From positions 1-32,489 of the forward strand of contig JAHLWH010000230.1 in the NCBI GenBank assembly GCA_019058015.1: a DNA stretch of 32,489 nt, read 5' to 3'. Positions 2,981 to 30,752 of this stretch are shown here, piece after piece (the stretch's first letter is position 1; every line of letters starts with the position of its first letter). The stretch is from Promethearchaeota archaeon (lineage in GTDB: Archaea; Asgardarchaeota; Lokiarchaeia; Sigyniarchaeales; SOKP01). The translations under genes were made by a program, and so were the position numbers. Below the pieces are notes generated by a model. That model worked only from the letters and a program-made list of their open reading frames with translations. It was not told where the DNA came from and made no database searches.

Positions 2981-3418
2981 CTAAATATTGTTTAATGGTC
3001 CTAATTTCTTAATTTGATTTGTAAAAGTAGTTATTAATTCAGCAAATTTTTTCCCTTCACTTGCGGATATCCATTCAAGCCGAAATCTATCTTCTAACCC
3101 CAAGAATTTTAAGATTTTTGTTAATTGTTCAAATCTATCTTTTGTAAATTCATTCCCGCTAATATAATGACAATCTCCTATATGACACCCAGTGACTAAC
3201 ACACCATCTATATTATCCTTAAAAGATTTTAAAATAAAAGCTGGTTCAACTCGACCCGAACACATTACTCGAATTATCCTAATAGAGGCAGGATATTGAA
3301 AACGAGATACTCCAGCCAAATCTGCTCCAGCATAGCTACACCAATTACAACAAAAACATACTATATTAGGTTTAAATTCTATATCTTGTTTTTTACTTGA
3401 TTTTTCTACGATTTTCAT
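2981..3418 (-). CDS. mvhD: MvhD-type [2Fe-2S] subunit (cysteine form)
   Basis: FCCNWCSYAGADLAG, IRVMCSGRV, GVLVTGCHIGDCHYISGN, WISASEG. Confidence 0.93.
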   Translation of the reverse strand: MKIVEKSSKKQDIEFKPNIVCFCCNWCSYAGADLAGVSRFQYPASIRIIRVMCSGRVEPAFILKSFKDNIDGVLVTGCHIGDCHYISGNEFTKDRFEQLTKILKFLGLEDRFRLEWISASEGKKFAELITTFTNQIKKLGPLNNI

Positions 3419-6574: not shown

Positions 6575-7750
6575 CTACTTATTTTGTTTTGAGGGTATAA
6601 CTTCAATAACGTTTTCCAAGAGATTTGATAAATCTATTACATTAATATCTTGGACAGTTTCTGTATCATTTTGAAGGCATCTAAAGTGAATTTCACATTT
6701 TGGACAAGTAGTAATTAAATTATCAGCAACATCTTTAGCTTCCAACATTCTATGATATCGAAGTGCTTTTGCTTGTTCAGAGCAATTTAGCCAACAACTT
6801 ACTCCGCAACATAAAGAATTGGATTTATTGTGAACCATTTCATTATATACATAACCTACTTTTTCCAATTCTTTAAAAATATATCTTATTTTTTCATATA
6901 TATTAAAAGATTTTGGTAAAAATCTACTTAATCTACATGGATCATGATAAGTTAATTTGAGTATTTTTGTGTTTTTCTTTTCCTTTTTAAATTTAATTTT
7001 ATTTTCCTTCAATTTCTCATAAAGATATTCAACAAGGTGTTTAACCTCAATATTAAAATTCTCAAACATCGAAGGATAATCAATTTTAAGAGTCCTATAC
7101 CCTTCTGCACAAGAAGTTACTATTAAAGAAGCTCCACTTCTTTCAAAAGCTTTTATATTATGGATTGCTAATTTTTTAAAAGCTTCGATTTTACCTTGCC
7201 ACAATAAATCATGACCACAACATTTTTCATCTTTCAATAAAACTATTGGTTCATTTTCAATTTTGCATAATATTTTTAAAGTATCTACAGCATTATTCAT
7301 TGACTCATCGAATTCATAATAAAAAAGGGGAGCACATCCTACAAAATATAAGATATTTCCCTCTTCTGATACCTTACACCCAGAAGGAACCCACTCAAAA
7401 GTCTTTTCCGGAGTAATATTTTCTTTACTCATAATTTCCGAAAGAAGTGTATAGAATCCCTTATGAGCAATTTTAGGCATAATTCCGGCATCCAACATTT
7501 TATTTCTTGCATCACGTACTATTTCAGCAAAATTAACTTCATGTGGACATTTTTCAAGGCAAGAATTGCAAGTTAAGCAATCCCAAAGCATTCCACTTTC
7601 AACAATTCGATCTTCAAAACCTTCAATGATCAGTTGTATTATCCTACTAGGAGTGTATTTTTGGATTCTTCCCATTTGGCAAATGCCACTACACATAGCA
7701 CATTGATAGCAATTATTAAGATATTCTCTTAATTTTCCTTTTATAACCAT
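6575..7750 (-). CDS. HdrD-like (HdrC-HdrB type) Fe-S / CCG-domain oxidoreductase
   Basis: CYQCAMCSGIC and WDCLTCNSCLEKCP ferredoxin motifs; two CCG domains (KCCGH..VTSCAEG; YHDPCRL..LCCG..TTCPKC). Confidence 0.88.
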   Translation of the reverse strand: MVIKGKLREYLNNCYQCAMCSGICQMGRIQKYTPSRIIQLIIEGFEDRIVESGMLWDCLTCNSCLEKCPHEVNFAEIVRDARNKMLDAGIMPKIAHKGFYTLLSEIMSKENITPEKTFEWVPSGCKVSEEGNILYFVGCAPLFYYEFDESMNNAVDTLKILCKIENEPIVLLKDEKCCGHDLLWQGKIEAFKKLAIHNIKAFERSGASLIVTSCAEGYRTLKIDYPSMFENFNIEVKHLVEYLYEKLKENKIKFKKEKKNTKILKLTYHDPCRLSRFLPKSFNIYEKIRYIFKELEKVGYVYNEMVHNKSNSLCCGVSCWLNCSEQAKALRYHRMLEAKDVADNLITTCPKCEIHFRCLQNDTETVQDINVIDLSNLLENVIEVIPSKQNK

Positions 7751-7775: not shown

Positions 7776-8888
7776 TTAAAATTTAACTCCTAAATTTTTT
7801 TGCGATAAATTATATCTATCTTCTTTATATTTTGAAAACTGAATTAATTTTTCTAACATTTTTTCTCTTTTTCCTTCTAAATCCTCTAAAACTTTTATAT
7901 ATCCCTCATTTATAGCGGATTTAACAATATTTGTTCCAAGTTTGGTTCTAGGTATAGTTGTTGTATATTTTTCAGGTGATGATAACCCACCAAATGAAAT
8001 ATCTGCATAAATATTAGTAAAATCATTACATGCATTACAAGCGGAACGTATATAATCTGATAATTCACTAAACGATATATGCTGAATAATTTCACTTCCT
8101 TTTAATTTTATTAACATATCTTCCTTAATATTTAATTTCTCAATCTCTTCAATTTTTAAATTAAATTGAGTTTCAAATTTCTCTTTTTTATCTTTACCCA
8201 TTGTAAAATTTCCATAACAAAATAATCCAAGAAGATATTTTATATTTTGAGAGGGGGTAACCCCCATTTCATGCATACATCTTATCGTATAAATTTGACA
8301 AGGCGTTCCTATAACAGCTAACTTTTTAAATTTATATCTATTTAATGCCATAATTGTAGGACTATAAGTACTAAAATTAGCAATTTCTGTTACTTGTGAA
8401 GAAATATCAAAATGAGAACCTGCAGCTAAAATTAAATCATTTTTAGATTTTGCAATCATTGAATCTCTCGAAAATGGTCCCAACTTTTTTGAAACGATTG
8501 CTCCATCAATTAAATTATGTTCCAATAAATACAATAATATAGCAGATACTACTCCACCATCAGTTCCATTTTTTAAGAGATCTTTATCTAATGCTTGAAA
8601 TGAATATATCTCTTTATAATTACCAAGTGGTTTGATATAATTATATTGATTATTTAAATTATTTTCTAATACTTTAGTTTGTGGACAAATATGATAACAT
8701 ATTCCGCACTCTAAGCATTCTTTTTCATTTATAAATTGTGGTGGCAAATCTGGTTTAATAAAATCAATAATCCTATAATCAGCAGAACTACAAAAACTTA
8801 CACACCCACCACATAATTGACAAATGCCTTTATCATGAACTTCTTTAATTAAATCTTTAAAATTTTTTATTCGTTTATCTTGACTCAT
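7776..8888 (-). CDS. Coenzyme F420 hydrogenase/dehydrogenase beta subunit (FrhB/FdhB family)
   Basis: CQLCGGCVSFC and CLECGICYHICP; DGGVVSA, VIGTPCQ, LGLFC, ACNACNDFT..ADISFGG. Confidence 0.9.
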   Translation of the reverse strand: MSQDKRIKNFKDLIKEVHDKGICQLCGGCVSFCSSADYRIIDFIKPDLPPQFINEKECLECGICYHICPQTKVLENNLNNQYNYIKPLGNYKEIYSFQALDKDLLKNGTDGGVVSAILLYLLEHNLIDGAIVSKKLGPFSRDSMIAKSKNDLILAAGSHFDISSQVTEIANFSTYSPTIMALNRYKFKKLAVIGTPCQIYTIRCMHEMGVTPSQNIKYLLGLFCYGNFTMGKDKKEKFETQFNLKIEEIEKLNIKEDMLIKLKGSEIIQHISFSELSDYIRSACNACNDFTNIYADISFGGLSSPEKYTTTIPRTKLGTNIVKSAINEGYIKVLEDLEGKREKMLEKLIQFSKYKEDRYNLSQKNLGVKF

Positions 8889-8905: not shown

Positions 8906-10387
8906 TTATTTTTTTACATTGAATTCAATTTTTTTGCATTTTGAATTTTTAATTCTTGAAATTTTCTTAACCAAACCGAATCCAGGTTTTACTTCAGCTA
9001 AATCCTTAACTTCTACTAAATTGCCATTTATCAATTTATTAAATAAATCATTTCCAACTTTTGTTCTTGTAATAACTGAAGACCAACCTGCACTTGAGCC
9101 TATTGAACCTACTGAAATATCTGCAAATTCGGATGTTAAATCACTACAATAATGGCATACATCTCTTGCTAAGGAAGTTAATTCTTTTAATGGAACTTTG
9201 GCTTCTTCTCCATTTTTATCTTTGACAATAAATTTTCCTCCACTAATGTCCATTTTTAAAATGTTCTCTAATTTCTTATTAAAAATTTCAGTGCTTATAT
9301 TGATAACATTATCATAGCTGAATGATTCCATGCAGAATAAACCAATAGTATATTTAATATTATTAAAAATAGATGTTCCAATTGGATAAATACTTCCTTT
9401 TTTGAGTGCTAACATCATACATGGAGTTCCAACGACTGCAATTTTATCAAATTTTTGTGCTTCATTCAAAATTGTTAAACTTGGAGAATTAGCATATTTT
9501 GTACCAGCGGTTTTATAAAGACCATCAACATTTTCAATTATAATAGGTTTTGGTCTCCAAATATCTTCAGAATGGGTTACTGCTATCGCAGCATCAATTT
9601 CTTTTTCTTTCAGTAAATAATATAATAATGTTGTTACTATACCACCATCTTGGCATACTTCTTTAATTTCATCACTTTTTGTACTTGCAGTATATGCATT
9701 TATATAATAATTACTTGCGGCACCATCCTTCAAATTAGGATTTAATTTATTTAAAACTGTAAAAATATGCTCAGATGGAAATGACCTCGGGCAAACAGAA
9801 AAACAAAGTCCGCATTTAATGCAAGTCTCAGAATCAATTTTAAGATCATCTGCAAATACTGTTATTGAGCCAACTGGGCATATTGATGAACAATAACCGC
9901 AATTACAACAAAAATTATTCTCAAATACTAAAGAAACTGGCTCAAAATAATTTTCTCGAAAAGAATTATCAAGGGATTTGGCTTGATATCGAACAATTTC
10001 AATCTTTATTTCTTTATCTATCAAATTTCCCTCTTTATTTTTTACTTTTTTGATTTCTGTCTTTATTTCAATTAATTTTTCAACATAACCTTGTTGGGTT
10101 AAATATTCAACTGTTGGTACTAATTTTTTCTTATCATATTCCACTTTCTCCACTATTTCTTCAAGAGTAAGCGGAGGAAGCCCCATTAATTTTTTTAATA
10201 TTAAATTTCTTTCTGTCTCAGCATCGAGAAGTGAATCTAAAATAAAATTAAAATCTTCCTCACTAAATCTTCCAAATTTTAAAATATCATCTTTTCCTTC
10301 ATATAACGCACGAATTTGAAAATTACTTATAGCGTTATATGTAGATTCCATTAAATTTTTTAGATCAATATTTTCTATAAGATCCAC
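8906..10387 (-). CDS. FrhB/FdhB family protein with an N-terminal winged-helix-like extension
   Basis: Two CxxCxxCxxxCP motifs, QDGGIVT, VGTPCM, IGLFCMESF, CHYCSDLTSEFADISVGSIGS. The first ~150 aa contain LTLEEIVEKVEYDKKKLVPTVEYLTQQGYV. GTG start preceded by AGGAAG. Confidence 0.88.
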   Translation of the reverse strand: MDLIENIDLKNLMESTYNAISNFQIRALYEGKDDILKFGRFSEEDFNFILDSLLDAETERNLILKKLMGLPPLTLEEIVEKVEYDKKKLVPTVEYLTQQGYVEKLIEIKTEIKKVKNKEGNLIDKEIKIEIVRYQAKSLDNSFRENYFEPVSLVFENNFCCNCGYCSSICPVGSITVFADDLKIDSETCIKCGLCFSVCPRSFPSEHIFTVLNKLNPNLKDGAASNYYINAYTASTKSDEIKEVCQDGGIVTTLLYYLLKEKEIDAAIAVTHSEDIWRPKPIIIENVDGLYKTAGTKYANSPSLTILNEAQKFDKIAVVGTPCMMLALKKGSIYPIGTSIFNNIKYTIGLFCMESFSYDNVINISTEIFNKKLENILKMDISGGKFIVKDKNGEEAKVPLKELTSLARDVCHYCSDLTSEFADISVGSIGSSAGWSSVITRTKVGNDLFNKLINGNLVEVKDLAEVKPGFGLVKKISRIKNSKCKKIEFNVKK

Positions 10388-10410
10388 CTTCCTAATTAAA
10401 TTTTTTTAAG

Positions 10411-10489
10411 CCCCCATATCCCTTGCAGGGATGTCCCAATAAAATTTCTTAATTTTAAGCTTTCATTTTAAAGATCATTCAAATGGGGG
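10411..10489 (-). promoter_or_regulatory. Eukaryote-like SECIS element (type II-like)
   Basis: mRNA reads CCCCCAU UUGA AUGA UCUUUAAAAU GAAAG CUUAA AA UUAAG AA AUUUUAUUGG GAC AUCCCU GCA AGGGAU AUGGGGG. This gives helix I CCCCCAU/AUGGGGG, an AUGA/GA core, a 10-position helix II (two U.U mismatches), AAA 11 nt after the core, and a CUUAA/UUAAG ministem. It lies directly 3' of two UGA-containing genes. Confidence 0.82.
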
Positions 10490-10946
10490 TTTTGGTTATT
10501 AATTTTTTATCTACTTCTTTTATTTCTGCCTTAATAACTGCTTGATCTGTTTTTAATGGATTCAATCCCAATTTTTCTACTTTATTTACCATATCTTCGA
10601 CCGATTTTACAAATTTTACAGCTTCAGCTCCAGAGCAGTTATACATGTTTACTCGGTCTCCTCCCAGACCACGCCTATCTAGAATTCTCTTAACAAATTT
10701 GACATGCTTTGCGGCAATAAAGTTTCCAGTTTTAAATTCACATTGATTTTCTTGTCATCCTACAACCATTACTCCATCGGCACCATTATTAATTGCATAA
10801 ATTAGGTGTTTTATATCGACTCTACCTGTACATCGCAGACGAATAATTTTTACATTGGGAGTATATTTCAATCTTGAAACACCAGCTAAATCTGCAGCAC
10901 TATAACCTCATTTATTACAAGCAAACGTAATGATATTCATTTTCAT
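10479..10946 (-). CDS. vhuD: Selenocysteine-containing MvhD/VhuD (155 aa; U13, U64), absent from the ORF track
   Basis: Manual translation: MKMNIITFACNK-UGA-GYSAADLAGVSRLKYTPNVKIIRLRCTGRVD...GADGVMVVG-UGA-QENQCEFKTGN...LGLNPLK...TKTPI-stop. The UGAs at 10908-10910 and 10755-10757 align with Cys in the paralog at 2981..3418. AGGTGA ribosome-binding motif lies upstream. Confidence 0.92.
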
Positions 10947-10969: not shown

Positions 10970-12913
10970 TTATACATTTACTTCCATTATTAATGCTAGA
11001 ACTTGATTAAATATTTGATCATCTGTATAATATCTAATTTGTATTGCTTGAGTTGGACAACATGTTGCACAGATTCCACACCCGTCACAATTGATCTCAT
11101 CGACCTCAGCAATTTTTCCTTCAGGTACAATAATAGTATTCTTTGGACAAATTTTTTCGCAGCGATAACAAGAAATACAATTTTTTTCATTAACAATCGC
11201 ACATATTAATTCAAGCTCCGCTTCTCCCTTGGATGTCAATTCTGCAACCTTACTTGCGGCTGCTCTCGCTTGAGAAACCGAGTATGATATATTTTTTGGT
11301 CCTTGCGCAAACCCACAAATATAAATCCCTAGATATTTAGTTTCCTGAGGGCTTAAGCCAAAATGATGTTCAGTCAGGTATCCATTTGTATCATAATCAA
11401 TTCCAAGAACATCTGCTATTTGTCTCGTTCCTTTAGATGGTAATACTGCAGTTGATAAAACAACTAAGTCTGCATCAATTTTTATTATCTCATCTGTTAA
11501 TGAAGAATATACTCTTACCTTGAGATTTTTGGTTTCAGAATCCTCTATTAGTTCTGGAACTTTACCCCGAATAAAGTCAATACCTTTATCACGAGTTCTC
11601 ATATAGTATTCTTCAAAGTTCTTTTCAAATGCTCTTATATCAATGTAGCAGATGGTTATATGGCAATCAGGGATTTCTTCTTTAAGTAATTTAGCATTTT
11701 TTAAAGCGATCATGCAACACACACCAGAACAATACGCATTTTCTGTATCTCTCGAGCCAACACATTGAATAAATAATATTTCTTTAGGTGTTTTTCCATC
11801 TGATGGTCTTTTTACATGGCCCATTGTTGGACCATTTGGTGCTAATATCCTTTCAAGCTGGATTTCGTTTATAACATTTTGATATTCTCCATATCCATAT
11901 TCTGTAGGATTATATAAGTCCCAACCCGTTGCAACTATTATTGTACCCACTTCAATTTCGATACATTCAGGTTCTTGACTCAAATCAATTGCATGTGGCT
12001 CGCAAGCATCTACACAAGCATATCATTCAACGCAAGATTCTTTTTCAAGATCATAAACAAAAGGAATAGCTTGCCCAAAAGATATATCGATACATTTTCT
12101 TGAACCTAAATTTTCTTGCCAATAATTTGGTATGTAAATTGGACATACTGGCGTACAATCTCCACAACCATTGCACAAATCTTCTATAACATATCTAGGT
12201 TTTTTCTTTATCGTAACTTCATAATTTCCAACATATCCTTCAACTTTATCAACTTCACTACAACTAATAATTTCAATATTCTCATTTCGATTAGCTTCAA
12301 GCATTTTTGGACCAAGAATTCATATAGAACAATCATCAGTTGGAAATGTTCGATCTAACTGAGCCATTCTGCCCCCAATTGTAGTTTTACTCTCTATTAC
12401 ATACACCCTTATTCCTTGATTTGCCAGATCTAATGCCGCATTTAATCCAGCGATTCCTCCACCAACTACTAAAGTAGATTTTTTTATAGGGATAATTTTT
12501 GTCGGTACTATTTCCAATCTTTTAGCCCTTTCATAACCTGCTCTGCTTAAAATCTTTGCTTTATCGGTTGCTGAAACTTCGTCTTCAGTAATCCAAGAAC
12601 ATTGTTCTCTAATATTTACCATTTGAAAATAAAATTTACTAAGTCCTGCCCGTTCTAAAGACTCTCTATAAATCGGTTCATGAGTTCTAGGAGTTCAAGC
12701 TGCAACTACAACCCGATTAATCTTTTTTTCTTTGATATCGTCCATTATTAATTTCTGTCCTTGTTCAGTACATAAAAAACTAAAGATGCGACTTGTTTCA
12801 ACATTATCAAATTGTTTCATATACTCTGCAACTTCAGAACAATCAACTTTCGCAGAAATATTCAAGCCTCATTGACATGCATAATATCCAATGCGTAAAA
12901 TTTCTTTACTCAA
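10970..12913 (-). CDS. hdrA: Selenocysteine-containing heterodisulfide reductase subunit A (647 aa; U15, U73, U198, U297)
   Basis: ORF-track pieces 12320..12622, 12023..12304 and 10970..11983 are one frame. It extends to TTG at 12913 and is interrupted only by TGA at 12869-71 (ACQ-U-GLNI), 12695-97 (VAA-U-TPRTHE), 12320-22 (DDCSI-U-ILGPKM) and 12023-25 (SCVE-U-YACVDAC). Ends at TAA. Confidence 0.93.
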
Positions 12914-13691: not shown

Positions 13692-15185
13692 GTGAGTGAA
13701 GAAGTAAATAAAGTAAGATCTGAATCTAAATATGAACATTCTTTTGAATATATAAAAAAGAAATTAGAAGGGAAAAAAGATTCATTTGGAAAATTAGTAA
13801 AGGAAGTTATAAGAACAGGTGTTTGCACTCATTGTGGCACTTGTGCAGCGATTTGCAGTGCTCTTGAATGGGATCCAATTTTAGAAGAACCACGATTAGT
13901 CGGTCAATGTTCTGGGTGTGGAATTTGTTATAATCAATGTCCGAGGACTATTACTAATCCCGAACAACTTGTTGGTCATTTTAAAACAGGTTATGTTACG
14001 AAAAGTGGAATTCCTGAAGTTATTAGTGGTCAGGACGGAGGAACCGTTACGAGCTTATTATGTTATTTATTTGATGAAAATTTGATTGATGGAGCAGTTG
14101 TTACTAAAAAAAATCCAAATAAACCATGGGTTCCGTTGCCTCAACTTATTACTACTAAAGAAGAAGCTATCGAAGCTTCTGGTTCTATTTATAGCCATTC
14201 ACAAACAGTTGATTCTTTAATGGACGGGATTAGAAATGACATGGGCTCTATCGCATTTGTAGGAACTCCTTGCAACATAGATGCTGTGTTTAAAATGGAA
14301 AGTAGTCCACTTGGAATGTTAAAATATTTTATGAGAGCACATGTTTTTAAAATTGGATTATTTTGTATGGATTCATTTTCACATGAAGCATTATTACCAT
14401 TTTTTGAGAAGGAGGGAATTAATTTAGCGGAAATAACAAAAATGGATATCAATAAAGGAAGATTTTATCTTTATAAAGGAGATACAGAAGTAAAATCCTA
14501 TAAAATAAAGGAATTAGATAAATTTAAATCATCAAGTTGCAATTTTTGCACAGATTTAGCTGCTGAAAATGCTGATATCTCGGTGGGTTCTGTTGGAAGT
14601 GGACCGATGAAAAACACAGTTTTAGCACGATCAGGTATAGGAGTAGAAATTATGGAGGACGCTATAAAAAAGGGATATTTTCTTTCTGAACCATTTTCAG
14701 TGGAAAATTTAAATTCTGTCTTGTTCCTAGCAAGATTAAAGAAAGTATCTCAATATACGGTTCTTAAAAGGAAGGTTTTTATAGTTAAAGATATAGATAG
14801 AGAAGAACCATTTAGACCAAGACCAGAATTGAAAGAGCAAGCTGAGGTCGCAACGCCGTTTGGAACAAGAAAAATATTAAGGATTACTCAAAAACTGAAT
14901 GAAAGTCAAACGGCTACTACAATTACAATAGAAAATGTTATTGGATATCTTCTTGAAAATTTACAAATTAGGGTTGCTGTTGTGGAAGAACTATTCGAAA
15001 AACGACCTTGGAGTACAACAATAAAAGAAATTTTTCCTTTTGAATCTATTCAGATTAGTTATCCATTAGAAATTAAAGATGGAAAACATGTTCTTGGAGA
15101 AATAATTATAGATATTTCTGATTCACATAGAAAACTCTTTTTTAAGAAATACTCTCTGAAACCAAAAGAAAAAAAATCAAAATAA
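13692..15185 (+). CDS. FrhB/FdhB family F420-interacting Fe-S flavoprotein with a C-terminal ~100 aa beta-sandwich-like extension
   Basis: CTHCGTCAAIC, CSGCGICYNQCP, QDGGTVT, FVGTPCN, IGLFCMDSF, CNFCTDLAAENADISVGSVGS. Extra C-terminal domain from ~14870. Confidence 0.88.
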   Translation: MSEEVNKVRSESKYEHSFEYIKKKLEGKKDSFGKLVKEVIRTGVCTHCGTCAAICSALEWDPILEEPRLVGQCSGCGICYNQCPRTITNPEQLVGHFKTGYVTKSGIPEVISGQDGGTVTSLLCYLFDENLIDGAVVTKKNPNKPWVPLPQLITTKEEAIEASGSIYSHSQTVDSLMDGIRNDMGSIAFVGTPCNIDAVFKMESSPLGMLKYFMRAHVFKIGLFCMDSFSHEALLPFFEKEGINLAEITKMDINKGRFYLYKGDTEVKSYKIKELDKFKSSSCNFCTDLAAENADISVGSVGSGPMKNTVLARSGIGVEIMEDAIKKGYFLSEPFSVENLNSVLFLARLKKVSQYTVLKRKVFIVKDIDREEPFRPRPELKEQAEVATPFGTRKILRITQKLNESQTATTITIENVIGYLLENLQIRVAVVEELFEKRPWSTTIKEIFPFESIQISYPLEIKDGKHVLGEIIIDISDSHRKLFFKKYSLKPKEKKSK

Positions 15186-15263: not shown

Positions 15264-16175
15264 ATGAAAATTAGTTTAATAGGATTGTCTGGTTGTGGCA
15301 AAACCTCTTTATATTCGGTAATATTCGCGGAAAAAACACCTGAAGAAACAAAGAGATTATCTCCAACGATACTCTATGAAACAAGAAGGCATCCTTTTTT
15401 AGGATTAGAAATATCAATTTTTGACTTTGGAGGCCAAGACCAATACATCAAAGAATATCTTGATAAGCCGAAAATATTCATGGGTACGGATGTTTTGATT
15501 CCCGTGGTTGATTTGCACGATCCAAATTCTTTTGATAAATCAAAAAAGTATTTTGAAGATGTTATAAAACTTTATAAAGAGAATTATCAGAAACCAAAAA
15601 TTTGTATGTTTTATCATAAATATGATACTGAAGATTATCAAAAGGAACTTTTAGATACAAATATAATAAAAGCTCGAGAGATTTTTTCGGACATATTCAA
15701 AGATTATAAGCCACAAACTTTTCTAACGAGTATCTATGATCAACAAAATTTAACAAAGATCTTCAGAGATATATTAATGGGATCTTATTCAGAATTAAAG
15801 GGTCATATAGAAAAAGCGGAAAAGCACTTACAGGAGATAAATGCGAGAATTATTATTTCCGATATATCAGGAAATGTATTAGTTCATAATGTTCAAGGAG
15901 TTTCAAGCGGACTATCATTAAGGGCAGATTTAAGAGATTTTATTAGTTCCTGTAATGTAATTAGAGAGAATGTTTTTTTATCTGATTCTGCAGAGTTTAA
16001 AGGAAATTCAGAAGAAGGTAAAGAACTTCAACTGTATATTTTTAAATATATATTAGCTGTTTTAATAATGAAATCGGAAGGGGAATTGGATCCTGAATCT
16101 TCTGAGAAGATTCGTGTATTGTTAAAAGATATGAAATTATTTTCTGACATAATTGTTTCTATTCATTCTGAATAA
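15264..16175 (+). CDS. Rag/Gtr1-like small GTPase with a C-terminal roadblock-like domain
   Basis: G1 GLSGCGKTS followed by SVIF, G2 LSPT, G3 FDFGGQ, G4 HKYD and G5 TSIYD; HKxD and TSIxD are typical of the Rag family. C-terminal IIISDISGNVLV is roadblock-like. Confidence 0.85.
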   Translation: MKISLIGLSGCGKTSLYSVIFAEKTPEETKRLSPTILYETRRHPFLGLEISIFDFGGQDQYIKEYLDKPKIFMGTDVLIPVVDLHDPNSFDKSKKYFEDVIKLYKENYQKPKICMFYHKYDTEDYQKELLDTNIIKAREIFSDIFKDYKPQTFLTSIYDQQNLTKIFRDILMGSYSELKGHIEKAEKHLQEINARIIISDISGNVLVHNVQGVSSGLSLRADLRDFISSCNVIRENVFLSDSAEFKGNSEEGKELQLYIFKYILAVLIMKSEGELDPESSEKIRVLLKDMKLFSDIIVSIHSE

Positions 16176-16202: not shown

Positions 16203-17399
16203 ATGAAATTAAGTCTTGATAATGATGATAGTATCATTTTGGGAGATTATCTTAATGTAATTACTAAAACTACATTTGAAGAAACAACTGAGATCTTGTG
16301 GGGAGGTTTAAAATTAATTTCTAAAAACCCATGTAAAAGAGACTTAATTATAACCAAATCTGAAATATTCAATCAAGGTACTTTTGAGGCTGGAGAATAT
16401 ATAAGAAAAAGATCACAACTTATTAATCCCAACGTAGTTCCAACAATTCCAGCAAGAAATATTCACTACTTAGTTAAAATGACTTTAAGAATTAAAAGTC
16501 CTCTTAATTCTCAAAAAGAAATAGAAATTTTTAAAGAAAATCCCATTAAAATTTTTCCAAAAGAGAATATATATCATAATAGAATTCCCACTCCAATTAA
16601 ATTAATTATGTCTGGGATAGATCTTGAAATTTCTAAAGATATTTTTAAACCAGGCGAGGCTATTAAGATTGATTATAAAACAAGCAATTTAGCATTATTT
16701 CAAATAAGATTAAAACAAAAGGCTAATTTAATATGTATTTGTGAACCTTTTGGTGAACAATGTGGAAGTACTGAGGAATTACCACCAGTGATTGCTGGTG
16801 GAGCAAAAACATCCAAAACAGATCACGGTTTTCTATTGATAAAAATTCCAAATCACGCTGAACCAAGTCATGAATATCTTTGGGAACCTCAAGAAAAAGA
16901 ACAGTGGGGAGTTAAATTTGGGGATTATTCTAAATGGTTTCTGGAGATAATAGGAAATAGGAAAAGAGAAGTCGGGGGAGATATAATCTCTTTTGAAATC
17001 CCAATTACTATTAAACCTCAAAAACAACAAAATATAATCGAAACTGGTTTATTTAGAGAAAGAGAAGAGGGTTTAGAATTATTTGAAGCCCCTCCTGCAA
17101 TAAAAAAAGGTATGAATATAATTTCTATTGATACTGATAAAGATACTTCTATAAGTACATTTATTTATAAATTGCGAATAAAAAATAATCTCAAAGATAT
17201 TCTTAATGGTGTTACAATAGAAAACTCAGGTATTCAACGAGGTCTATTCGAGACCTATAAGCATATGACAGGTTTTAATTCATGGCTACCAGGAGAAGAA
17301 AAAATAATTGAATATAAAACAAGGCAAGAAATCGATACTTTAATTTCTACTATCAAAACAAATTCTCAAAAACAAACTAGAATTCAAACAATTCTATGA
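16203..17399 (+). CDS. Arrestin/Vps26/SpoOM-fold protein with a shared C-terminal beta-sandwich-like domain
   Basis: Arrestin-N-like FEAGEY..INPNVVPTI...IHYLVKMTL; arrestin-C-like SKDIFKPGEAIKIDY..IKIPNHAEPS..FEIPITI; third domain from ~17110. Confidence 0.62.
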   Translation: MKLSLDNDDSIILGDYLNVITKTTFEETTEILWGGLKLISKNPCKRDLIITKSEIFNQGTFEAGEYIRKRSQLINPNVVPTIPARNIHYLVKMTLRIKSPLNSQKEIEIFKENPIKIFPKENIYHNRIPTPIKLIMSGIDLEISKDIFKPGEAIKIDYKTSNLALFQIRLKQKANLICICEPFGEQCGSTEELPPVIAGGAKTSKTDHGFLLIKIPNHAEPSHEYLWEPQEKEQWGVKFGDYSKWFLEIIGNRKREVGGDIISFEIPITIKPQKQQNIIETGLFREREEGLELFEAPPAIKKGMNIISIDTDKDTSISTFIYKLRIKNNLKDILNGVTIENSGIQRGLFETYKHMTGFNSWLPGEEKIIEYKTRQEIDTLISTIKTNSQKQTRIQTIL

Positions 17400-20629: not shown

Positions 20630-22702
20630 TTGATTGATTATAAACCACAAATATTTTTGGAAAACATTGATGTTTTGATTAGCATTGTTAATCCAAATAA
20701 TAAATTTGAATTTGAATTTGTTAACGAACATATTTATTTAGATTTATTGGGATATTTAAGCAAAGAATTAATTGGAAAATCATTTTTGGATTTATTACAT
20801 CGTGATGATTTGCTTATTGTAAAAAAAATATTAAAAAGAAAAACTGAATCTAAAGAATATTTAAACGAAATAAGACTTAAACATAAAAATAATAAATATA
20901 TTTGGTTTGAAATTAAAAAAAAAAGATTTAAAGATGATAGCAATAAAAAAAAAATATTAATTATTTTAAAAAATATTTCAAGCCGTAAGAAACTAGAGGA
21001 AAAGTTAAGAGAAAATGAGGATAGATTTAAAAAATTAACTATAACTCTGCCAGAAATTCGTTTTTGGAAACTATTTAACCCAAAAAAATATGAAGTGGCA
21101 TTACAAAAATCATATGAGATGCTTCATACTGTCATGGAAAGCATTCCTCAATATATATTTTGGAAAGATATTAATTCTACATATTTAGGATGTAATCACA
21201 GCTATACTAAACTTATAGGCATAGAATATCCTGAGGAAATAATAGGTAAAACAGATAATGATTTTTTAACTAATAAAGAAAAGATAAAGCATCTCAAAGA
21301 ACATGAAACCAAGGTTATGATAACAAAAAAACCTGAATTTCATATAGTTGAATCATGGGTATTAAAAAAGGGCACCATAGTATGGTTGGATATAAATAGA
21401 ATACCTCTCTTCGATTCGGAAGAAAATGTAGCAGGAATTCTTGTCACTCTTGAAGATATTACTGAAAAAAAAATCTATGAGGAACTAATATTTGAATTAA
21501 ATAATAATTTTTTAAATTTTACAACTGATGTCAAAAAGAATTTAAAATTATTATTAGATTCTTGTTTTAAATTAATAAACGGAGATATTATTTTATATAT
21601 TCATAAGAGTTCAATTAATGAAAAAGAACAGTATCAAATAATCACATCCGATAATCAGGTATTTAATTACAATTCTGAATATTTTTTGGAGAATATTTTT
21701 GTTAATCAATTATTTTTAGCAGAACATGATTTACCTCAAACCATTTTTGATTTAAATGAAACTAAATATGCTAAGACCGATCAATTTATCATTGATAATA
21801 AGATAAAAGCATGTTATGGAAAATTGATTCAATCTCAAAATGAATTTAACAATGCTTTATGTGTCTTTTATAAACATAACCCAATTATAACTAACCGAGA
21901 CAGTATGGTTTTATATTTAATTGGAGATGCGATTGAAATTGAACAAAAACGCTGGCAAATGCAACAAGATTTAGAAGCACAAAATATAATGTTAAATGAA
22001 ATTAATAAAGTAAAAACAGAGTTGTTATCTAGAACTTCACATGAATTAAAGACCCCTCTTGTTTCAATAAAAGGATTTACTGAACTTTTGTTAGCACGTT
22101 ATAAATCTGAATTAGATGACAATGTTATTTCGATTTTAAAAGAAATTATGAAAGGGAGTCAACGTCTTGAAAATATTATTAATATGCTTTTACAAAGTTC
22201 AAAATTGGATAAAGATAAAATAGAATTAAAAATTTCTAAGGGAGATTTGACATCCTTGATTAATGAGTGTATAAAAGAGTTGCAAGGATTAGCAGAATTA
22301 AGGAAACAATCAATATCATTTAAAATTCAGGATTCTTTAAATACTGATTTCGATAAAGAAATGATTCATGATGTAATATCAAATTTATTATCAAATGCTA
22401 TTAAATATACTCCTCCAGAGGGAAATATTATTATTCAATCTAAAATAAAAGATGACTTCTACATAATTTCCGTAAAAGATAATGGAATTGGATTCACTGA
22501 AAAAGAAAAAAACCAATTATTTAAACATTTTGGCAAAATTGAAAGATATGGTAAAGGATGGGATGTAAATATAGAGGGTACTGGGCTTGGATTATATATT
22601 TCAAAAAAAATTGTAGAATTGCACGGTGGAAAGATTTGGGTTGAATCGGAGGGAAGAAATAAAGGGAGTACTTTTTATTTCTCCATTCCAAGAATAAATT
22701 AA
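20630..22702 (+). CDS. PAS-PAS sensor histidine kinase (cytoplasmic)
   Basis: Two PAS/PAC domains (LLGYLSKELIGKSFLDLLH; IFWKDINSTYLGCN); H-box SHELKTPL; N-box NLLSNAIKYT; G1 DNGIG; G2 GTGLGL. Confidence 0.93.
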   Translation: MIDYKPQIFLENIDVLISIVNPNNKFEFEFVNEHIYLDLLGYLSKELIGKSFLDLLHRDDLLIVKKILKRKTESKEYLNEIRLKHKNNKYIWFEIKKKRFKDDSNKKKILIILKNISSRKKLEEKLRENEDRFKKLTITLPEIRFWKLFNPKKYEVALQKSYEMLHTVMESIPQYIFWKDINSTYLGCNHSYTKLIGIEYPEEIIGKTDNDFLTNKEKIKHLKEHETKVMITKKPEFHIVESWVLKKGTIVWLDINRIPLFDSEENVAGILVTLEDITEKKIYEELIFELNNNFLNFTTDVKKNLKLLLDSCFKLINGDIILYIHKSSINEKEQYQIITSDNQVFNYNSEYFLENIFVNQLFLAEHDLPQTIFDLNETKYAKTDQFIIDNKIKACYGKLIQSQNEFNNALCVFYKHNPIITNRDSMVLYLIGDAIEIEQKRWQMQQDLEAQNIMLNEINKVKTELLSRTSHELKTPLVSIKGFTELLLARYKSELDDNVISILKEIMKGSQRLENIINMLLQSSKLDKDKIELKISKGDLTSLINECIKELQGLAELRKQSISFKIQDSLNTDFDKEMIHDVISNLLSNAIKYTPPEGNIIIQSKIKDDFYIISVKDNGIGFTEKEKNQLFKHFGKIERYGKGWDVNIEGTGLGLYISKKIVELHGGKIWVESEGRNKGSTFYFSIPRIN

Positions 22703-24513: not shown

Positions 24514-25728
24514 ATGCTCTCAAGTAAATTAGCTGTAAAGAAAATTAAAACAATTGATGAATTTTTAGAATTATATAAAGAAAATATAAGCCCTGATTTC
24601 CAAAACATATTAAAGCTTAATTTTCAAATAAAAATTGGAAAACCTTCTCAAAAGATAAATCCAATCATTCATTTAGCAAAACCAGAAGACTCAAAGGAAA
24701 TCATTCAAATTTTTAGAGATATCTATAAAGGAACTTACCCTTACAAGCAAATGGAAGAGGATCAAGGAGTAAAAAAAATGATTATTGATCCAAATTATCA
24801 ATGGTTCTTATTCAAAATCAATTCAATAGAGACTGTTGGATGCTTTGGTGCTCATTTAGAATTAGAGAAAAAAAGAGGCTTTCTTTATGGATTTATAATA
24901 AAAGAAAAGTATCAAAAAACTATAGATATTTTTAAAGCATTCATTGGTTGTGTGATTTTTTTATGGAAAACCTATAAGAGTAAAATATTATTATGGTATG
25001 GCGAGATGCGTACAAATGAGAGTTCTTCTCAATTTTTTACTTCATTAATTGGATTAAAACCGATAGGTTTTTTTCCAAATAAAGATATTTTTTTTAATCA
25101 AATTGAATCAGATGTTCTACATGTTATTTATGATGAAAAAGCTTTGTATAAATATCGACGTAAGAAAAATCCAAAAATTATCCGTCAAGTTTTAAATTGT
25201 TATGTATATTCCAATAAGAGATATCATTTAGGTACTCCTATTATCAAAAATCCAAATATTAAATTAAATTCTAAAAAATTAAAGGAAATTAAAGGAAAAA
25301 TGGTTAATCGAAAGGAAAAAGACGAATTTGGCAACGAAGCGATAACATTTTCCATCAAAAATTCTAATTCTTATTTTAAATTTATATATAATCCATTAAG
25401 TAAAAATTTTGAAAAAACATTATATAAAATTAATCTTTTAGAAGAATTATTTACTTTCATACAAAAATTGAAAGAACTGATACAAAATATGGAAATTAAT
25501 TATTTCGAATGTTTTGTTTCTTCCTATGAACCGAAGCATCAAAAAATTTTTCTCGATGCGGGTTTCAACCCAAGAGGCTATATTCCTTGCTGGAAATATA
25601 ATAAAGAAAAAAACCATTTTGAAGATCAAATAGTTTTTAATTATTATAAAGGAAAAATTGATGATAATATAAAATTAATTCCTGAAGCTGTAGAACTCCT
25701 TCAAGCTTTAAGATTTTTGGAAGAATAA
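24514..25728 (+). CDS. Tandem GNAT-fold protein
   Basis: IHLAKPEDSKEIIQIFRDIYKGTYPY, GFIIKEKYQK, GLKPIGFFP, and a second FLDAGFNPRGYIP motif. Confidence 0.7.
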   Translation: MLSSKLAVKKIKTIDEFLELYKENISPDFQNILKLNFQIKIGKPSQKINPIIHLAKPEDSKEIIQIFRDIYKGTYPYKQMEEDQGVKKMIIDPNYQWFLFKINSIETVGCFGAHLELEKKRGFLYGFIIKEKYQKTIDIFKAFIGCVIFLWKTYKSKILLWYGEMRTNESSSQFFTSLIGLKPIGFFPNKDIFFNQIESDVLHVIYDEKALYKYRRKKNPKIIRQVLNCYVYSNKRYHLGTPIIKNPNIKLNSKKLKEIKGKMVNRKEKDEFGNEAITFSIKNSNSYFKFIYNPLSKNFEKTLYKINLLEELFTFIQKLKELIQNMEINYFECFVSSYEPKHQKIFLDAGFNPRGYIPCWKYNKEKNHFEDQIVFNYYKGKIDDNIKLIPEAVELLQALRFLEE

Positions 25729-25817: not shown

Positions 25818-26687
25818 TTGAGTAATATTAATATGTATGACAAAAAAAGACTCAAAAATTGGTCAGCTTCTTATTGGAATCAAATAAAAAGAAATATTGG
25901 ACTTATAAAAATCGTAGAACAGGAAAAATTAAGGAATACTCTTATTGCCGTTCTTGGCGTTGGTGGGCTTGGTGGGCCGTTAGCAGTTCAACTTGTTAGA
26001 GCAGGCTGCGAAAAACTTATAATATGTGACGATGAGAGATTCGAAGAAGCAAACCTGAATCGACAGCTATGTACTAGGGAGGATCTTGGAAGGTATAAAG
26101 TCGATGTTACCGAAAAGCTATTAAAAAAAATTAATCCGGAAATTGAACTTCAAAAATATTATAAAATAACAAAAAAATTTGTATCAAATATATTAAATAG
26201 TACATCGATTGTCGTTTTAACTTTAGACGATCCAATAGCATCAATTTTGATTTCGCGAGAATGTTCAAAAAAAAAAATTCCTATATTAGAATCTTGGGGA
26301 ATTCCTTATCTCTGTGCATGGTGGTTTACATCAGGGAGTATCGATTATGAAACATGTTATGGGTTTAAAACTCAGAAAATGACGATCGATGAGATTCAAA
26401 AATCTGAAAAAATACTTCTTAAGCTTAAAAAAGCATTTTTAAATAAATTAATTAAATTTCCTGAAATAGAAGAAATATTTAATAGAGAACAAGGCGCGCT
26501 AGAAGGACTGTTTTCAGGAAACCTTCCTTCAATATCTCTTGCACCTATCGTCGAGATGACTGCATCTTATCTTGCTTTCGAAGTCATTTTTTCAGGAATC
26601 TTAAAGATCAAAAGCAAGAATTTAGCCCCAAATGTTGTTGGGTATGATTATTTCCGAATGAAACCGATCCACTTTAACTTTTTATAA
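25818..26687 (+). CDS. ThiF/MoeB/E1-like adenylyltransferase
   Basis: RNIGLI..EQEKLRN, VLGVGGLGG, DDERFEEANLNRQ, DLGRYKVDV..INPEI. No paired CxxC zinc motif. Confidence 0.9.
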   Translation: MSNINMYDKKRLKNWSASYWNQIKRNIGLIKIVEQEKLRNTLIAVLGVGGLGGPLAVQLVRAGCEKLIICDDERFEEANLNRQLCTREDLGRYKVDVTEKLLKKINPEIELQKYYKITKKFVSNILNSTSIVVLTLDDPIASILISRECSKKKIPILESWGIPYLCAWWFTSGSIDYETCYGFKTQKMTIDEIQKSEKILLKLKKAFLNKLIKFPEIEEIFNREQGALEGLFSGNLPSISLAPIVEMTASYLAFEVIFSGILKIKSKNLAPNVVGYDYFRMKPIHFNFL

Positions 26688-26848: not shown

Positions 26849-27547
26849 TTGATATTACAAGCCGTTGATCTTGCTAGACTTTTATTGGTTTATTTTATGC
26901 ACTCTTTTATTTTAATTATTTTATTTTATTTGGCATTTAAAATTCTCAAAAGAAATTATAATCGTTCATCTTTAATTTTAAGTGCTTATTACATTTTTCC
27001 TGGATTATCTTTTCTATTAAATCTAATATATTTACCACTCAGTACAACCATTGCAGGATATATAATATATTTTATATTGGCTTTTTTAATGTTATTTGGA
27101 CAAATTTTTATCGTAATTTTCATTATAAATCTTCTTTATATAGACATAAATTTCTGGTTAAAAAGACAGAATTTAATTATATCAGCCTACGCAATAATTA
27201 ATCTTTTAGTGTTAATTATTCCTGGATCAATAACTTTCAATGAAGGAGTTCCCGCTTATAGTTGGGTTTTTCTTACTTTCATTTACATAATTTTCACTCT
27301 TGGTACAATTATACCAACTATAACATTTTCAATAAAATTATTCAATACATTTGAAGATAAAACACTAAAAAGAAAGCTTAAATACTTCTTTATTGGCGTT
27401 TTTGGAATGTGTTTTGCCTTTTATGGTTTGATGCTCTATAATACTTGGTCTGATTCAATTTTTAGAACTATCTGGTCTTTTTTAGTCTTTTTTATAGTAA
27501 TTCCTTCAATATTATTAATATATTATGGAATAGGGCAGAATTTATAA
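26849..27547 (+). CDS. Multi-pass (about 7 TM) membrane protein, possible stand-alone sensor domain
   Basis: About seven hydrophobic segments with short basic loops (KILKRNYNRS, EDKTLKRKLK); no soluble output domain. Confidence 0.75.
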   Translation: MILQAVDLARLLLVYFMHSFILIILFYLAFKILKRNYNRSSLILSAYYIFPGLSFLLNLIYLPLSTTIAGYIIYFILAFLMLFGQIFIVIFIINLLYIDINFWLKRQNLIISAYAIINLLVLIIPGSITFNEGVPAYSWVFLTFIYIIFTLGTIIPTITFSIKLFNTFEDKTLKRKLKYFFIGVFGMCFAFYGLMLYNTWSDSIFRTIWSFLVFFIVIPSILLIYYGIGQNL

Positions 27548-27669
27548 ATAATTATAAATTTTTTCAATTTAATCTTTTCAATATTGCGTTGTTATATTTT
27601 AAGGCTAATTCTTAATTCGATATTTAAAAATTTTAAATAGAAATCTAAGACTAAGTAGGGTAAAAAAAA

Positions 27670-28788
27670 ATGGCAAACCTAGAAATAAAAGAACATTCTG
27701 AATTATATATAGAAATTTTAACAAATCCTGACGAAATTTTGAAATATTTGCACCTTGGTATAAGCATTCCAATTTTACTGGAATTTAAAAAATATATTTT
27801 AGGAGATATAAAAGCATATAATGCTAAAGCTATTGTTCTCGAAAAGAATATTAATAGAAAAAATTTTGGAAATATAACTGATACTACAATTGGAAATGTC
27901 TTAATTTACGATGATGGCGGTGAAATTTTGTTTTTCGGTTTTTTTGGAGTTTATGATCATGATTCTAAAAAAATTAAATATTTAATTGATAAATTAATTG
28001 AATATGCTAAAGTTCAAAACTATAAAAAAATTAGGGGGCCAATAAATATCCCTACAGTTATTTTTGGCTGGGGTTTTATGGTTGAAGGCAGTAAAAAAGA
28101 TTTATTTATCTGTTCACCAATTAACCCACCAATTTATCAAAAGATATTTTTTGAAAAAGGATTTAAAGTTTTATTTCAAGAAGATCGGTATGAAGTGCCA
28201 GCACTAAAAATGGATCCTCATAAAAATAAGAGATTAATAAGTATGGGTATTAATACTGGTAACTATAAAAATGATATCTTTGATACTGGTGATTATCCAT
28301 ACAAGTATATCAACCCAGGAAAAGAAGAATTGCTTAAAATTAAAAAAGAAATCGCTGAAATGTACTTCAAATATATGCCCCCATCCGCTCAAATAACACC
28401 AAGAAAACTTCACAATGCAGAGAATATTATTAATTTTATAGATGAATTTGGAGCAAAATGGATGATGTGGATAGTAAGACATAAAAAAACCAATCAAATG
28501 GTTGCAAATGGATACGTTATTCCCAATATTTTTCATAAAAATAATAAGGGAGAACTTGATTCTTTAAGCTTTCACTCATGGGTAGTTCATCGAGATCACA
28601 GACGAAAATATTTAACCATGCTTATGTATGGACTAACAGTCTTGCAAGCAATGGATAAAAAAACACCTCACTTTATAAGAGGAGGATCATGGCCTGTTGG
28701 TTCTGAAAATATAGCAAATGCGAGCGCAGCAAGAAAAATGGGAGGTAAAAAGGATAGAAGTCATTTAATTTTAGAATATAGTTTTTAA
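27670..28788 (+). CDS. GNAT-fold protein (YghO-like tandem acetyltransferase)
   Basis: FFGFFGVYD..LIEYAK..KIRGPIN..GFMVEG..NPPIYQKIFFEKGF; VVHRDHRRKYL; ENIANASAARKMGG. Confidence 0.7.
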   Translation: MANLEIKEHSELYIEILTNPDEILKYLHLGISIPILLEFKKYILGDIKAYNAKAIVLEKNINRKNFGNITDTTIGNVLIYDDGGEILFFGFFGVYDHDSKKIKYLIDKLIEYAKVQNYKKIRGPINIPTVIFGWGFMVEGSKKDLFICSPINPPIYQKIFFEKGFKVLFQEDRYEVPALKMDPHKNKRLISMGINTGNYKNDIFDTGDYPYKYINPGKEELLKIKKEIAEMYFKYMPPSAQITPRKLHNAENIINFIDEFGAKWMMWIVRHKKTNQMVANGYVIPNIFHKNNKGELDSLSFHSWVVHRDHRRKYLTMLMYGLTVLQAMDKKTPHFIRGGSWPVGSENIANASAARKMGGKKDRSHLILEYSF

Positions 28789-29170
28789 TTATTATTTTAT
28801 TAATATTAGGATAAAAATAACCATTGAATCTTCAATGAAATTAGATTAAATTTGTAAAGAAGAAAATTTAATCATTTAAAATTTTATATATATTCCCCTA
28901 ATCTAAAAAGCGATTCTTTACACCGAACTTTTTTTTTTCTTTCTTTTTGAGAACTTATCTTTAATTTCTTGAAATAAATTTTTCGATTTCAATATTTCAT
29001 TCAAGAAATTTCGTCGGCTTTAATTTTTATAAGTAAAACTAGAATCATAAGAAATTTTTAAATTTAATTAAGATCCACATTTTATATTTTATAATGAAAA
29101 CTGATAATAATGAAATTTTATTAAATCTAGATAAAAATATCAACAATTAAATTAATTTGAGGTAACTAAA

Positions 29171-29395
29171 ATGAAAGAGAAAGTACTTGAAATAATTGAA
29201 AAAATAAGACCGCAGCTTCAAATGGATGGCGGTGATGTTGAACTTGTCGATGTAACAGATGATGGAATTGTAAAAGTAAGATTACAAGGGCATTGTCGTG
29301 GATGTGCTTATTCGCAAATGACTCTCAAACTCGGGATTGAAAGAGCATTAAAACAAGTAATTCCTGAAGTTAAATATGTAGAGTCTGTGCCTTAA
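29171..29395 (+). CDS. NifU-like (Nfu) Fe-S cluster carrier
   Basis: IRPQLQMDGGDVELV..VKVRLQGHCRGCAYSQMTLKLGIE; GAGGT ribosome-binding motif upstream. Confidence 0.92.
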   Translation: MKEKVLEIIEKIRPQLQMDGGDVELVDVTDDGIVKVRLQGHCRGCAYSQMTLKLGIERALKQVIPEVKYVESVP

Positions 29396-29504
29396 ATAAA
29401 TATAATTTAAATTTATTTAAGCACTCTTTTTATCAATTCTTCATTTGAGATTAATTCTCAATAGAATAAATTATATAAAGTCTCTATGCTTTATTGAATT
29501 AATT

Positions 29505-30752
29505 ATGAAAAGAGAAAAAGAAACTAATACTTCTGAAAACTCCGAACAAGAAGCAGAAAAGGAAGAGGAACCTATTAAGAAAACTCAAGGAGAATTAATT
29601 CAAGAAGCCTTAGGTTTAGATCAAGCAACTATCGGTAGAATTGAAAAACAACTCTTTGTTGCGAAATTTATAGATTCAATTTCTGAAGATATTTTTGATT
29701 ACATTTATCGAGATCGCATTTTAGCGAAATATATGGACATGTTAAAGAAGAATATGGGTGAATTAGATGAAACTACTGCAGCTTTTATGCAAGAAACTTT
29801 TGAGCAAAAACAAATAGAACCTACTATTTCAGACTTAAAATCTAAAGCAGAAGAAGTCGCTCAAGAAAACGATATAAACAGATCATTGAATTCAAAATTA
29901 AAAAGAAATGGTATGATTGGTATGTTACCGCTTTGTATTTTAGTAATACTTATTTATGTCGTACCTCCTGATTTTACTTTTTATCTTATGATACCACTTT
30001 GTTTTCTTTGTTTCCTCCCACAATTTTTACGCTCTCGAATAGTTCAAAAATGGAATGATTTTAAGGAGGAAAATAAAAAGATATTTTATCAAGAAAATAG
30101 AGAAAAAATAATTTTATTGAAAGAATTTGTTCAAATTACATTAGATAATATCCATAATATTCTACTTGACAAGAAAATACCTCTAGAATTAATCAAATTC
30201 TCATTAAGTTCCAGCGACTATAAGAATTTGAAGTTAATAAATGAGCAGGTATTAAGAGGTGGAATAACACAATATTTTTTCACATTTGAATATCCCCCTG
30301 GAGTAGAACCATTTCCTATTCCAGAAATAATTAAAAAAAAATATATGGAACCGGTTGTTTCTCAAAAGAAAACAACAGAAGATAATTTTTTAATTTTAAA
30401 AAATATTAAAGTTTCAAATGGAGAAATTGAAAAATTCGAAGTTGAATTAAAAGAAGACTTAAAAGATGACATTAATACTCTATTAAATTCCTGCAAGTTT
30501 GAAAAGACCAAAGATTTTAGTTTAATAATGCCAAATTATACACCTGAAACAGCAATACATTGTATTTGTGGAGAAATTGCCGAGTTTTCAAATGTGCAAA
30601 AATGTTCTTGGATTGAAACTGAATCAGAGGAAAAATTTGAATTTTATCTATTTGAGTCTGAAAAGTGTAAATGTGGCGAAAAGGTGTTTGTTCTTTCACT
30701 TATGGAAGAAGATGTAAAAATTCCAGATAAATGGAAAAGTATTTTTAGTTAA
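29505..30752 (+). CDS. Hypothetical membrane protein with a two-TM hairpin and a C-terminal Cys-rich (Zn-ribbon-like) domain
   Basis: Helical N-terminus; TMs MIGMLPLCILVILIYVV and FTFYLMIPLCFLCFLP; HCICGE...CKCGE. ATG at 29505 is preferred over 29445. Confidence 0.65.
   Translation: MKREKETNTSENSEQEAEKEEEPIKKTQGELIQEALGLDQATIGRIEKQLFVAKFIDSISEDIFDYIYRDRILAKYMDMLKKNMGELDETTAAFMQETFEQKQIEPTISDLKSKAEEVAQENDINRSLNSKLKRNGMIGMLPLCILVILIYVVPPDFTFYLMIPLCFLCFLPQFLRSRIVQKWNDFKEENKKIFYQENREKIILLKEFVQITLDNIHNILLDKKIPLELIKFSLSSSDYKNLKLINEQVLRGGITQYFFTFEYPPGVEPFPIPEIIKKKYMEPVVSQKKTTEDNFLILKNIKVSNGEIEKFEVELKEDLKDDINTLLNSCKFEKTKDFSLIMPNYTPETAIHCICGEIAEFSNVQKCSWIETESEEKFEFYLFESEKCKCGEKVFVLSLMEEDVKIPDKWKSIFS

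Follow-up and report, generated by a model that had tools for sequence, protein, structure and literature searches.

HdrA proteins with up to four selenocysteine (Sec) residues, spread over five positions, were described from Lokiarchaeota in 2016, always encoded upstream of VhuD, and in these pairs one SECIS element serves up to six UGA codons over about 2 kb (Mariotti 2016, PMC4989117). In the accessible text of that work the Sec sites are not taken as cluster ligands, save one in the last motif, where a spare Cys adjoins it. An Asgard selenoproteome catalogue of 227 genomes describes type I and type II SECIS elements behind hdrA and frhD (Huang 2024, PMC11227280). A 2026 review (PMC13188914) counts a single Sec in HdrA and states that the case for Sec as a direct ligand of Fe-S clusters comes mostly from inference on Cys homologs. 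On the structural side, a crystal structure has the N-terminal cluster bound by N-terminal Cys and by Cys197 from the other subunit (PMC9012536), and cryo-EM maps have additional density at a pair that is either Cys-Cys or Cys-Sec (PMC13580544; Cys-Sec197 density in PMC13518236); a 2026 structure paper treats the role of the HdrA Cys-Sec pair as unsettled (PMC13518236). Clusters HA5/HA6 and the inserted ferredoxin constitute the exit path (PMC13580544, PMC12350162), the inserted ferredoxin domain being the low-potential exit (PMC12350162, PMC6019823). The literature searched yielded no explicit listing of the HA3 ligands.

Here we analyse a stretch of 32,489 nucleotides from a lokiarchaeal genome (assembly GCA_019058015.1, contig JAHLWH010000230.1), hereafter the window, in which an hdrA gene with four in-frame UGA codons had been predicted from the sequence.

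An hdrA frame with four in-frame UGA codons

The original prediction gave a frame of 647 codons with TGA at codons 15, 73, 198 and 297 as its only breaks. This frame is confirmed and lies on the minus strand, which had not been specified (Table 1); the four codons are its sole interruptions, with no frameshift and no internal TAA or TAG, and the plus strand over the gene is closed. Standard calling does split the gene in three, as table 11 translation returns three ORFs of at least 80 aa. Read through, the product matches chain A of 5ODC (E 6.6e-193, residues 6-641), and both its full-length homology and its domains, in the order N-terminal cluster domain, FAD-binding thioredoxin-reductase fold, inserted and C-terminal 2[4Fe-4S] ferredoxins, identify it as an HdrA. 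Cys occupies all four TGA sites in 5ODC chain A, and the Cys paralog announced for the same operon is the fused HdrA, which has Cys in the named motifs. An AlphaFold2 single-sequence model was unusable (mean pLDDT 32.9).

Table 1. Coordinates of the features in the window
Feature	Position	Strand	Remarks
hdrA	10970..12913	minus	647 codons, TTG start, TAA stop, four in-frame TGA read as Sec
Sec15 of hdrA	12869..12871	minus	HA3 (N-terminal cluster domain); aligned with Cys13 of 5ODC; Sec in 62/71 HdrA
Sec73 of hdrA	12695..12697	minus	HA3 (N-terminal cluster domain); aligned with Cys71 of 5ODC (own count); Sec in 40/71
Sec198 of hdrA	12320..12322	minus	canonical site (Cys/Sec197 of methanogens), Cys195 as partner; Sec in 70/71
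Sec297 of hdrA	12023..12025	minus	second position of C294-x2-U297-x2-C300-x3-C304 in the inserted ferredoxin domain; Sec in 5/71, Cys in 66/71
mvhD/vhuD	10479..10946	minus	PF02662; Sec13 (10910-10908), Sec64 (10757-10755); stop TGA 10481-10479 directly before the SECIS core
SECIS, eukaryote-like	10400..10490	minus	lower stem 10489-10483/10417-10411, AUGA 10478-10475, GA 10435-10434
SECIS apical mini-stem (type II-like) and side hairpin	side hairpin 10432-10418	minus	longer than the usual lokiSECIS
FrhB/FdhB-family Fe-S flavoprotein	8906..10387	minus	next gene of the cluster
Second FrhB/FdhB-family protein	7776..8888	minus	
HdrD-like protein	6575..7750	minus	4Fe-4S dicluster and two CCG domains; three genes downstream of mvhD
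Fused double HdrA, 1041 aa	3438..6563	minus	all-Cys paralog, no in-frame TGA
Cys-type mvhD paralog	2981..3418	minus	

All four TGA codons had been placed at conserved Cys positions, and this is borne out. In a set of 54 HdrA (30 best matches, one per genome, 20 picked mostly for at least three TGA, and four from this genome), 26 columns are at least 90% Cys/Sec and hold all four codons, an arrangement that four random codons would reach with p = 2.6e-6. Across the set, 151 of 152 in-frame TGA lie on Cys/Sec columns. A pool of 71 HdrA, enriched for many TGA and including 17 genes picked for Sec in ferredoxin motifs, holds 70 Sec-HdrA, and 216 of their 217 in-frame TGA fall on invariant Cys columns. 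The sole exception is the fourth TGA of an HdrA elsewhere in this genome (C125:22423-24393), which stands on a Leu codon (Leu161) and is missing from its two orthologues.

The four TGA could in principle be nonsense changes in a pseudogene or errors of assembly, and this genome gives some grounds for the suspicion: that C125 codon and a TGA in SepSecS (see below) are private, and selD is absent from the assembly. It is the stray TGA in SepSecS that makes a check of hdrA across genomes matter. The same four TGA are present in three of the three same-genus genomes with an orthologue (96-97% identity), and contigs of an independent study (run X5; contigs rather than raw reads) keep TGA at codons 198 and 297. 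The dN/dS ratio, 0.11-0.32 for the whole gene and 0.12-0.36 past codon 297 (6/6 pairs), is well below 1, showing purifying selection on hdrA. Together with a frame free of frameshifts, TAA and TAG and with TGA on Cys columns throughout, this leaves decay or misassembly a negligible probability.

As a whole, the original interpretation holds in part. The tetra-Sec HdrA stands, whereas the statement that four Sec are unusually many goes too far, with up to four already in PMC4989117 and, in the 71 HdrA, four in-frame TGA in 12 genes and five in 7; the Sec pair of mvhD and the shared SECIS had been missed.

The putatively shared SECIS element and the selenocysteine machinery

On the same strand, mvhD begins 23 bases after hdrA, which ends in TAA, and chain K of 9SFI (methanococcal VhuD) has X at the sites matching both mvhD Sec. 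Counted over both genes, six in-frame UGA stand at sites of conserved Cys. The locus displays the marks of the lokiarchaeal multi-Sec HdrA-VhuD pair, with a canonical Sec near 200, further Sec on conserved Cys, a two-Sec vhuD directly downstream and an hdrA stop of the UAA/UAG kind. Contigs of an RNA run (X17) cover 21 of 30 bins, one of them spanning the hdrA/mvhD junction, contigs being unable to prove transcription.

A covariance model built from the elements of 22 relatives, with that of this genus left out, ranks 10400-10490 first in the window (38.1 bits, E 4.7e-6; next best E 0.17), that is, one SECIS behind vhuD and none nearby. Genome-wide, the element scores lowest of the five matches, and strict lokiSECIS patterns (type I 9/11/9 geometry, loop ending in G) miss it in the window. 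Its AUGA-GA spacing is 39 bases, as compared to 29 in lokiSECIS (PMC4989117), and the ten extra bases can pair as an apical mini-stem; the stem has two U-U mismatches. A constrained fold fits a type II eSECIS-like shape (AUGA_GA core, upper stem, A bulge, mini-stem), with folding z-scores that are not significant (-0.84 and -1.08 for unconstrained folding, no better than shuffles) and no covariation, since the four copies are almost identical. An Rfam scan of the window returned no SECIS family, only six chance-level matches. In most SECIS elements of hdrA-mvhD pairs (L014-L059), the segment from GA to the lower stem holds a side hairpin whose loop contains UGC.

The genome contains the machinery by which a Sec-utilising archaeon is recognised: tRNA-Sec with the UCA anticodon and Sec features, EFSec and SepSecS, all scoring above cut-offs, and a PSTK homolog (E 1.4e-44, below the curated cut-off). 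In these components the expectation of Sec machinery stands, with the exception of SelD, which was not found in this assembly. Its gene is present in four of four same-genus genomes and eight of eight relatives, and the gene next to selD lies at the end of contig C264 in this assembly; selD is apparently missing because it falls in a contig gap. The full-length SepSecS (C197:22045-20675, minus) has its private TGA on a Gly codon, the gene being open in four of four relatives, and a partial 5' copy beside tRNA-Sec (C156:20975-21092), 97% identical to it, has an open frame as well. This TGA probably stems from a mixture of strains or an error of the consensus. A genome-wide reassignment of TGA was considered and rejected, because TGA ends 226 of the 1696 long ORFs and is thus still a stop.

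Cys insertion at Sec UGA codons through the Sec pathway is known from eukaryotic work under selenium shortage. Applied here, the UGA codons would be read through, with some of them, especially the recently gained 297, receiving Cys or a Sec/Cys mix and no selenium-ligated cluster being formed. The all-Cys paralogs of the same cluster and the rarity of Sec297 (5/71) are in keeping with such a scheme. UGA is however otherwise a stop in this genome, the UCA anticodon and other features of the tRNA are those of tRNA-Sec, and the solved methanococcal HdrA and VhuD are non-standard at equivalent sites, that of HdrA being named Sec197 (PMC13518236). We regard Cys insertion as very unlikely. From the frame, its relatives and the machinery, the gene very probably encodes an intact HdrA with four Sec, UGA being read as Sec, in a genome of the Lokiarchaeon type that uses Sec.

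Other loci of this genome and class also carry UGA codons or SECIS-like elements. A 51-52-codon single-pass membrane ORF with a Pro-rich end (L170; C213:22675-22520, minus) closes with Gly-Gly-Gly-UGA-Gly-stop, presumably resembling the C-termini of eukaryotic SelK/SelS, and has a well-formed lokiSECIS 37 bases behind it (pattern match at 22483). Over 161 genomes this ending occurs at four places (C213, C101, G002, G009) in three genomes, versus six control matches, i.e. without enrichment over the control. A small ORF with Cys-UGA-UGA (C134:9040-8573, minus) has a SECIS behind it, and a nearly identical second SECIS lies 2.5 kb away (C134:6053, minus) with no obvious UGA gene upstream. An AIR-synthase-like gene (C61:15268-16728) holds a TGA within an apparent 30-base in-frame insertion, which may be either an intron of an archaeal mRNA or a duplication made in assembly.

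Probable selenocysteine at position 297 and in other ferredoxin motifs

Sec297 aligns without gaps to the second Cys in the second CxxCxxCxxxC of the inserted ferredoxin. It sits in a ligand position with no spare Cys, the nearest, 294 and 300, being motif positions themselves. The proposal that Sec residues serve as Fe-S ligands is probably right for some of the sites, and 297 is the part of it that holds as new: replacement of a ferredoxin-motif ligand Cys by Sec seems to be unpublished. We found no paper on Sec in HdrA ferredoxin motifs in the literature searched, with subscription journals mostly outside its coverage, and five strings with Sec inside the motif gave no matches in Supplementary data 2 of PMC11227280.

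In that same supplement, near-identical orthologues have Sec at 15, 73 and 198, as here, and end at codon 296 (six alignment rows); two sequences of another clade end before a TGA at codon 300. UGA297 could be a true stop, yielding a three-Sec, 296-aa N-terminal protein and a separate 337-aa protein from an in-frame TTG at codon 311. Across four genomes, codons 298-310 differ by two synonymous and no residue changes, which is weak evidence as the four genomes are close. However, the published cut is pipeline output that goes undiscussed in the accessible text of PMC11227280. A stop at 297 would also drop three of the eight ligand positions of the two-cluster ferredoxin and split the FAD-binding fold, and by eye there is no purine-rich GGUG/GGAG-like ribosome site before TTG311. 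Furthermore, equivalent TGA recur in otherwise intact frames at 247, 253, 257, 294, 300, 384, 399, 400, 589, 612 and 615, and 15 of the 17 genes found by pattern have a SECIS match; splits at every one of these sites are implausible. Termination at 297 is improbable.

Further genes came from a census in which 161 genomes of the class were searched with five DNA patterns; it gave several hundred raw matches, most in other frames. Forty matches were chosen by eye from at least several hundred; 17 are Sec-HdrA with the canonical Sec and a motif TGA, and 20 are not plausible genes. Three ferredoxin-type genes (L144, L152, L159) have a lone motif TGA with neither a SECIS match nor another Sec, and reveal that a background of errors or nonsense alleles exists.

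In the 71-HdrA pool, Sec occupies 16 of the 26 invariant columns. Ferredoxin motifs account for 26 Sec, in 25 of the 71 genes and at nine positions, 17 of the genes having been picked for the trait. Positions 257, 294, 297 and 300 hold 19 of these 26, in genomes that are related and with patterns of uneven sensitivity, and a bias towards particular clusters is tentative. One HdrA (L123, G091) combines Sec257 with Sec294, which belong to the same ferredoxin cluster, and in another (L040, G020) two Sec stand side by side, at 399 and 400, within the thioredoxin-reductase domain's cluster. A five-Sec HdrA (L130, G052:C214:59000-64200) has no mvhD after it; its 3' hairpin has the lokiSECIS loop and the side hairpin and, by eye, apparently AGGA instead of AUGA.

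The TGA at codon 300 makes the strongest case for read-through of a UGA at a ligand site. In seven genomes (88-96% identical) it is invariant and Cys304 is kept, with codons 301-316 displaying seven columns that vary synonymously versus four with a residue change. As for origins, starred branches force at least two each for Sec300 and Sec612 (one orthologous group, 23 rows). Sec297 also occurs in a genome of another genus (G053); the free tree needs two changes, but a single clade is not rejected (p-AU 0.21), which leaves independent origin a candidate reading. Sec matched none of 361 variable-position Cys, in a survey whose patterns could find motif sites only and with few independent gains in the first 53 genes (about seven, by eye), and given these limits we make no claim of selection for ligand over non-ligand Cys.

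Predicted function and comparison with known systems

The account that we hold with considerable confidence is that one mRNA with one distal SECIS directs insertion of six Sec, yielding a bifurcating HdrA of full length in which selenolates ligate HA3 and one exit cluster. The hdrA and mvhD genes would share the transcript, and the single SECIS would recruit EFSec and Sec-tRNA to all six UGA codons, up to 2.4 kb away. The UGA stop of mvhD, adjoining the SECIS core, would be too close for recoding. Both read-through of the hdrA UGA codons and selenium-iron ligation are inferred, and the product is predicted to be electron-bifurcating.

For the individual residues, Sec198 may form a redox pair with Cys195 near the FAD, or act as a shared HA3 ligand. 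Four columns of the N-terminal domain, 13, 15, 48 and 73, are invariably Cys/Sec, and the HA3 cubane, with at most one ligand from outside, needs at least three of its own, which makes at least one of Sec15 and Sec73 a predicted ligand of this mobile cluster; the exact HA3 ligand set is likewise inferred. Sec297 would ligate a ferredoxin-type [4Fe-4S] cluster on the low-potential exit path.

The neighbouring genes hint at the physiological role. Going by their identity and order, F420H2-driven bifurcation is slightly favoured: electrons may pass from the FrhB-like subunits to the [2Fe-2S] cluster of MvhD and on to the FAD, and then be split between the HdrD-like CCG protein and ferredoxin. Gene order would make F420H2 the donor, and a disulfide and ferredoxin the acceptors. 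Neither hdrB nor hdrC was detected among the 20 window proteins scanned against Pfam. Divergent from hdrA, across a 780-base AT-rich gap, lies a third FrhB-family gene with a C-terminal extension (13692-15185, plus). A Rag/Gtr1-like small GTPase (15264-16175, plus) and a ThiF/E1-like gene (25818-26687, plus) are as expected of Asgard genomes, and the window segments 16203-17399, 24514-25728 and 26849-30752 have no Pfam match.

As part of the favoured account, single TGY-to-TGA changes at ligand Cys would be tolerated, and would arise repeatedly, in a gene that has come under a long-range SECIS. A broader proposal is offered as a conjecture that we consider rather doubtful in its full form. Lokiarchaeial HdrA would be a natural selenium-for-sulfur ligand series along an electron-bifurcating wire, in which one long-range SECIS lets Sec repeatedly invade 16 of the 26 invariant Cys, true cubane ligands included, with a bias to the shuttle cluster HA3 and to one exit cluster of the inserted ferredoxin. 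The scattered, repeated origins of ligand-site Sec fit drift under a permissive SECIS, while the concentration on 257/294/297/300, as seen with uneven-sensitivity patterns and related genomes, fits tuning. Were the bias selected, the low-potential branch of bifurcation would be tuned by selenolate ligands in these archaea. If the proposal is true, catalogues undercount Sec, with five possible per HdrA and seven per SECIS, owing to genes being cut at these codons. In practice, standard callers and the specialist catalogue alike truncate such genes, and Asgard selenoproteomes therefore need correcting. Close orthologue pairs with Cys versus Sec at one cubane ligand are a ready test of the effect of selenium on cluster potential and electron gating.

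With multi-Sec lokiarchaeal HdrA published in 2016 (PMC4989117), neither the count of four nor the arrangement is new. Congruent with the pairs described there, hdrA lies right upstream of a two-Sec vhuD and has a canonical Sec near 200 and up to four Sec, and one SECIS would serve six UGA, with UAA as the hdrA stop and UGA as that of vhuD. The full domain order and all 26 cysteine positions are shared with the Cys HdrA structures (5ODC, 7BKB, 8RVU) and with 9SFI. The methanococcal Sec-HdrA and VhuD (9SFI; PMC13518236) have in common with the present pair the Sec at the 197/198 site and two non-standard VhuD residues. The methanococcal HdrA however has one Sec versus four here, and its partners are HdrBC and a hydrogenase, in place of the FrhB-like, HdrD-like and fused HdrA genes of this locus. 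In contrast to the view taken in the accessible text of PMC4989117, later structures place the N-terminal sites on cluster HA3, and, unlike the pairs reported there, the present HdrA has a Sec, at 297, in a ligand position with no spare Cys.
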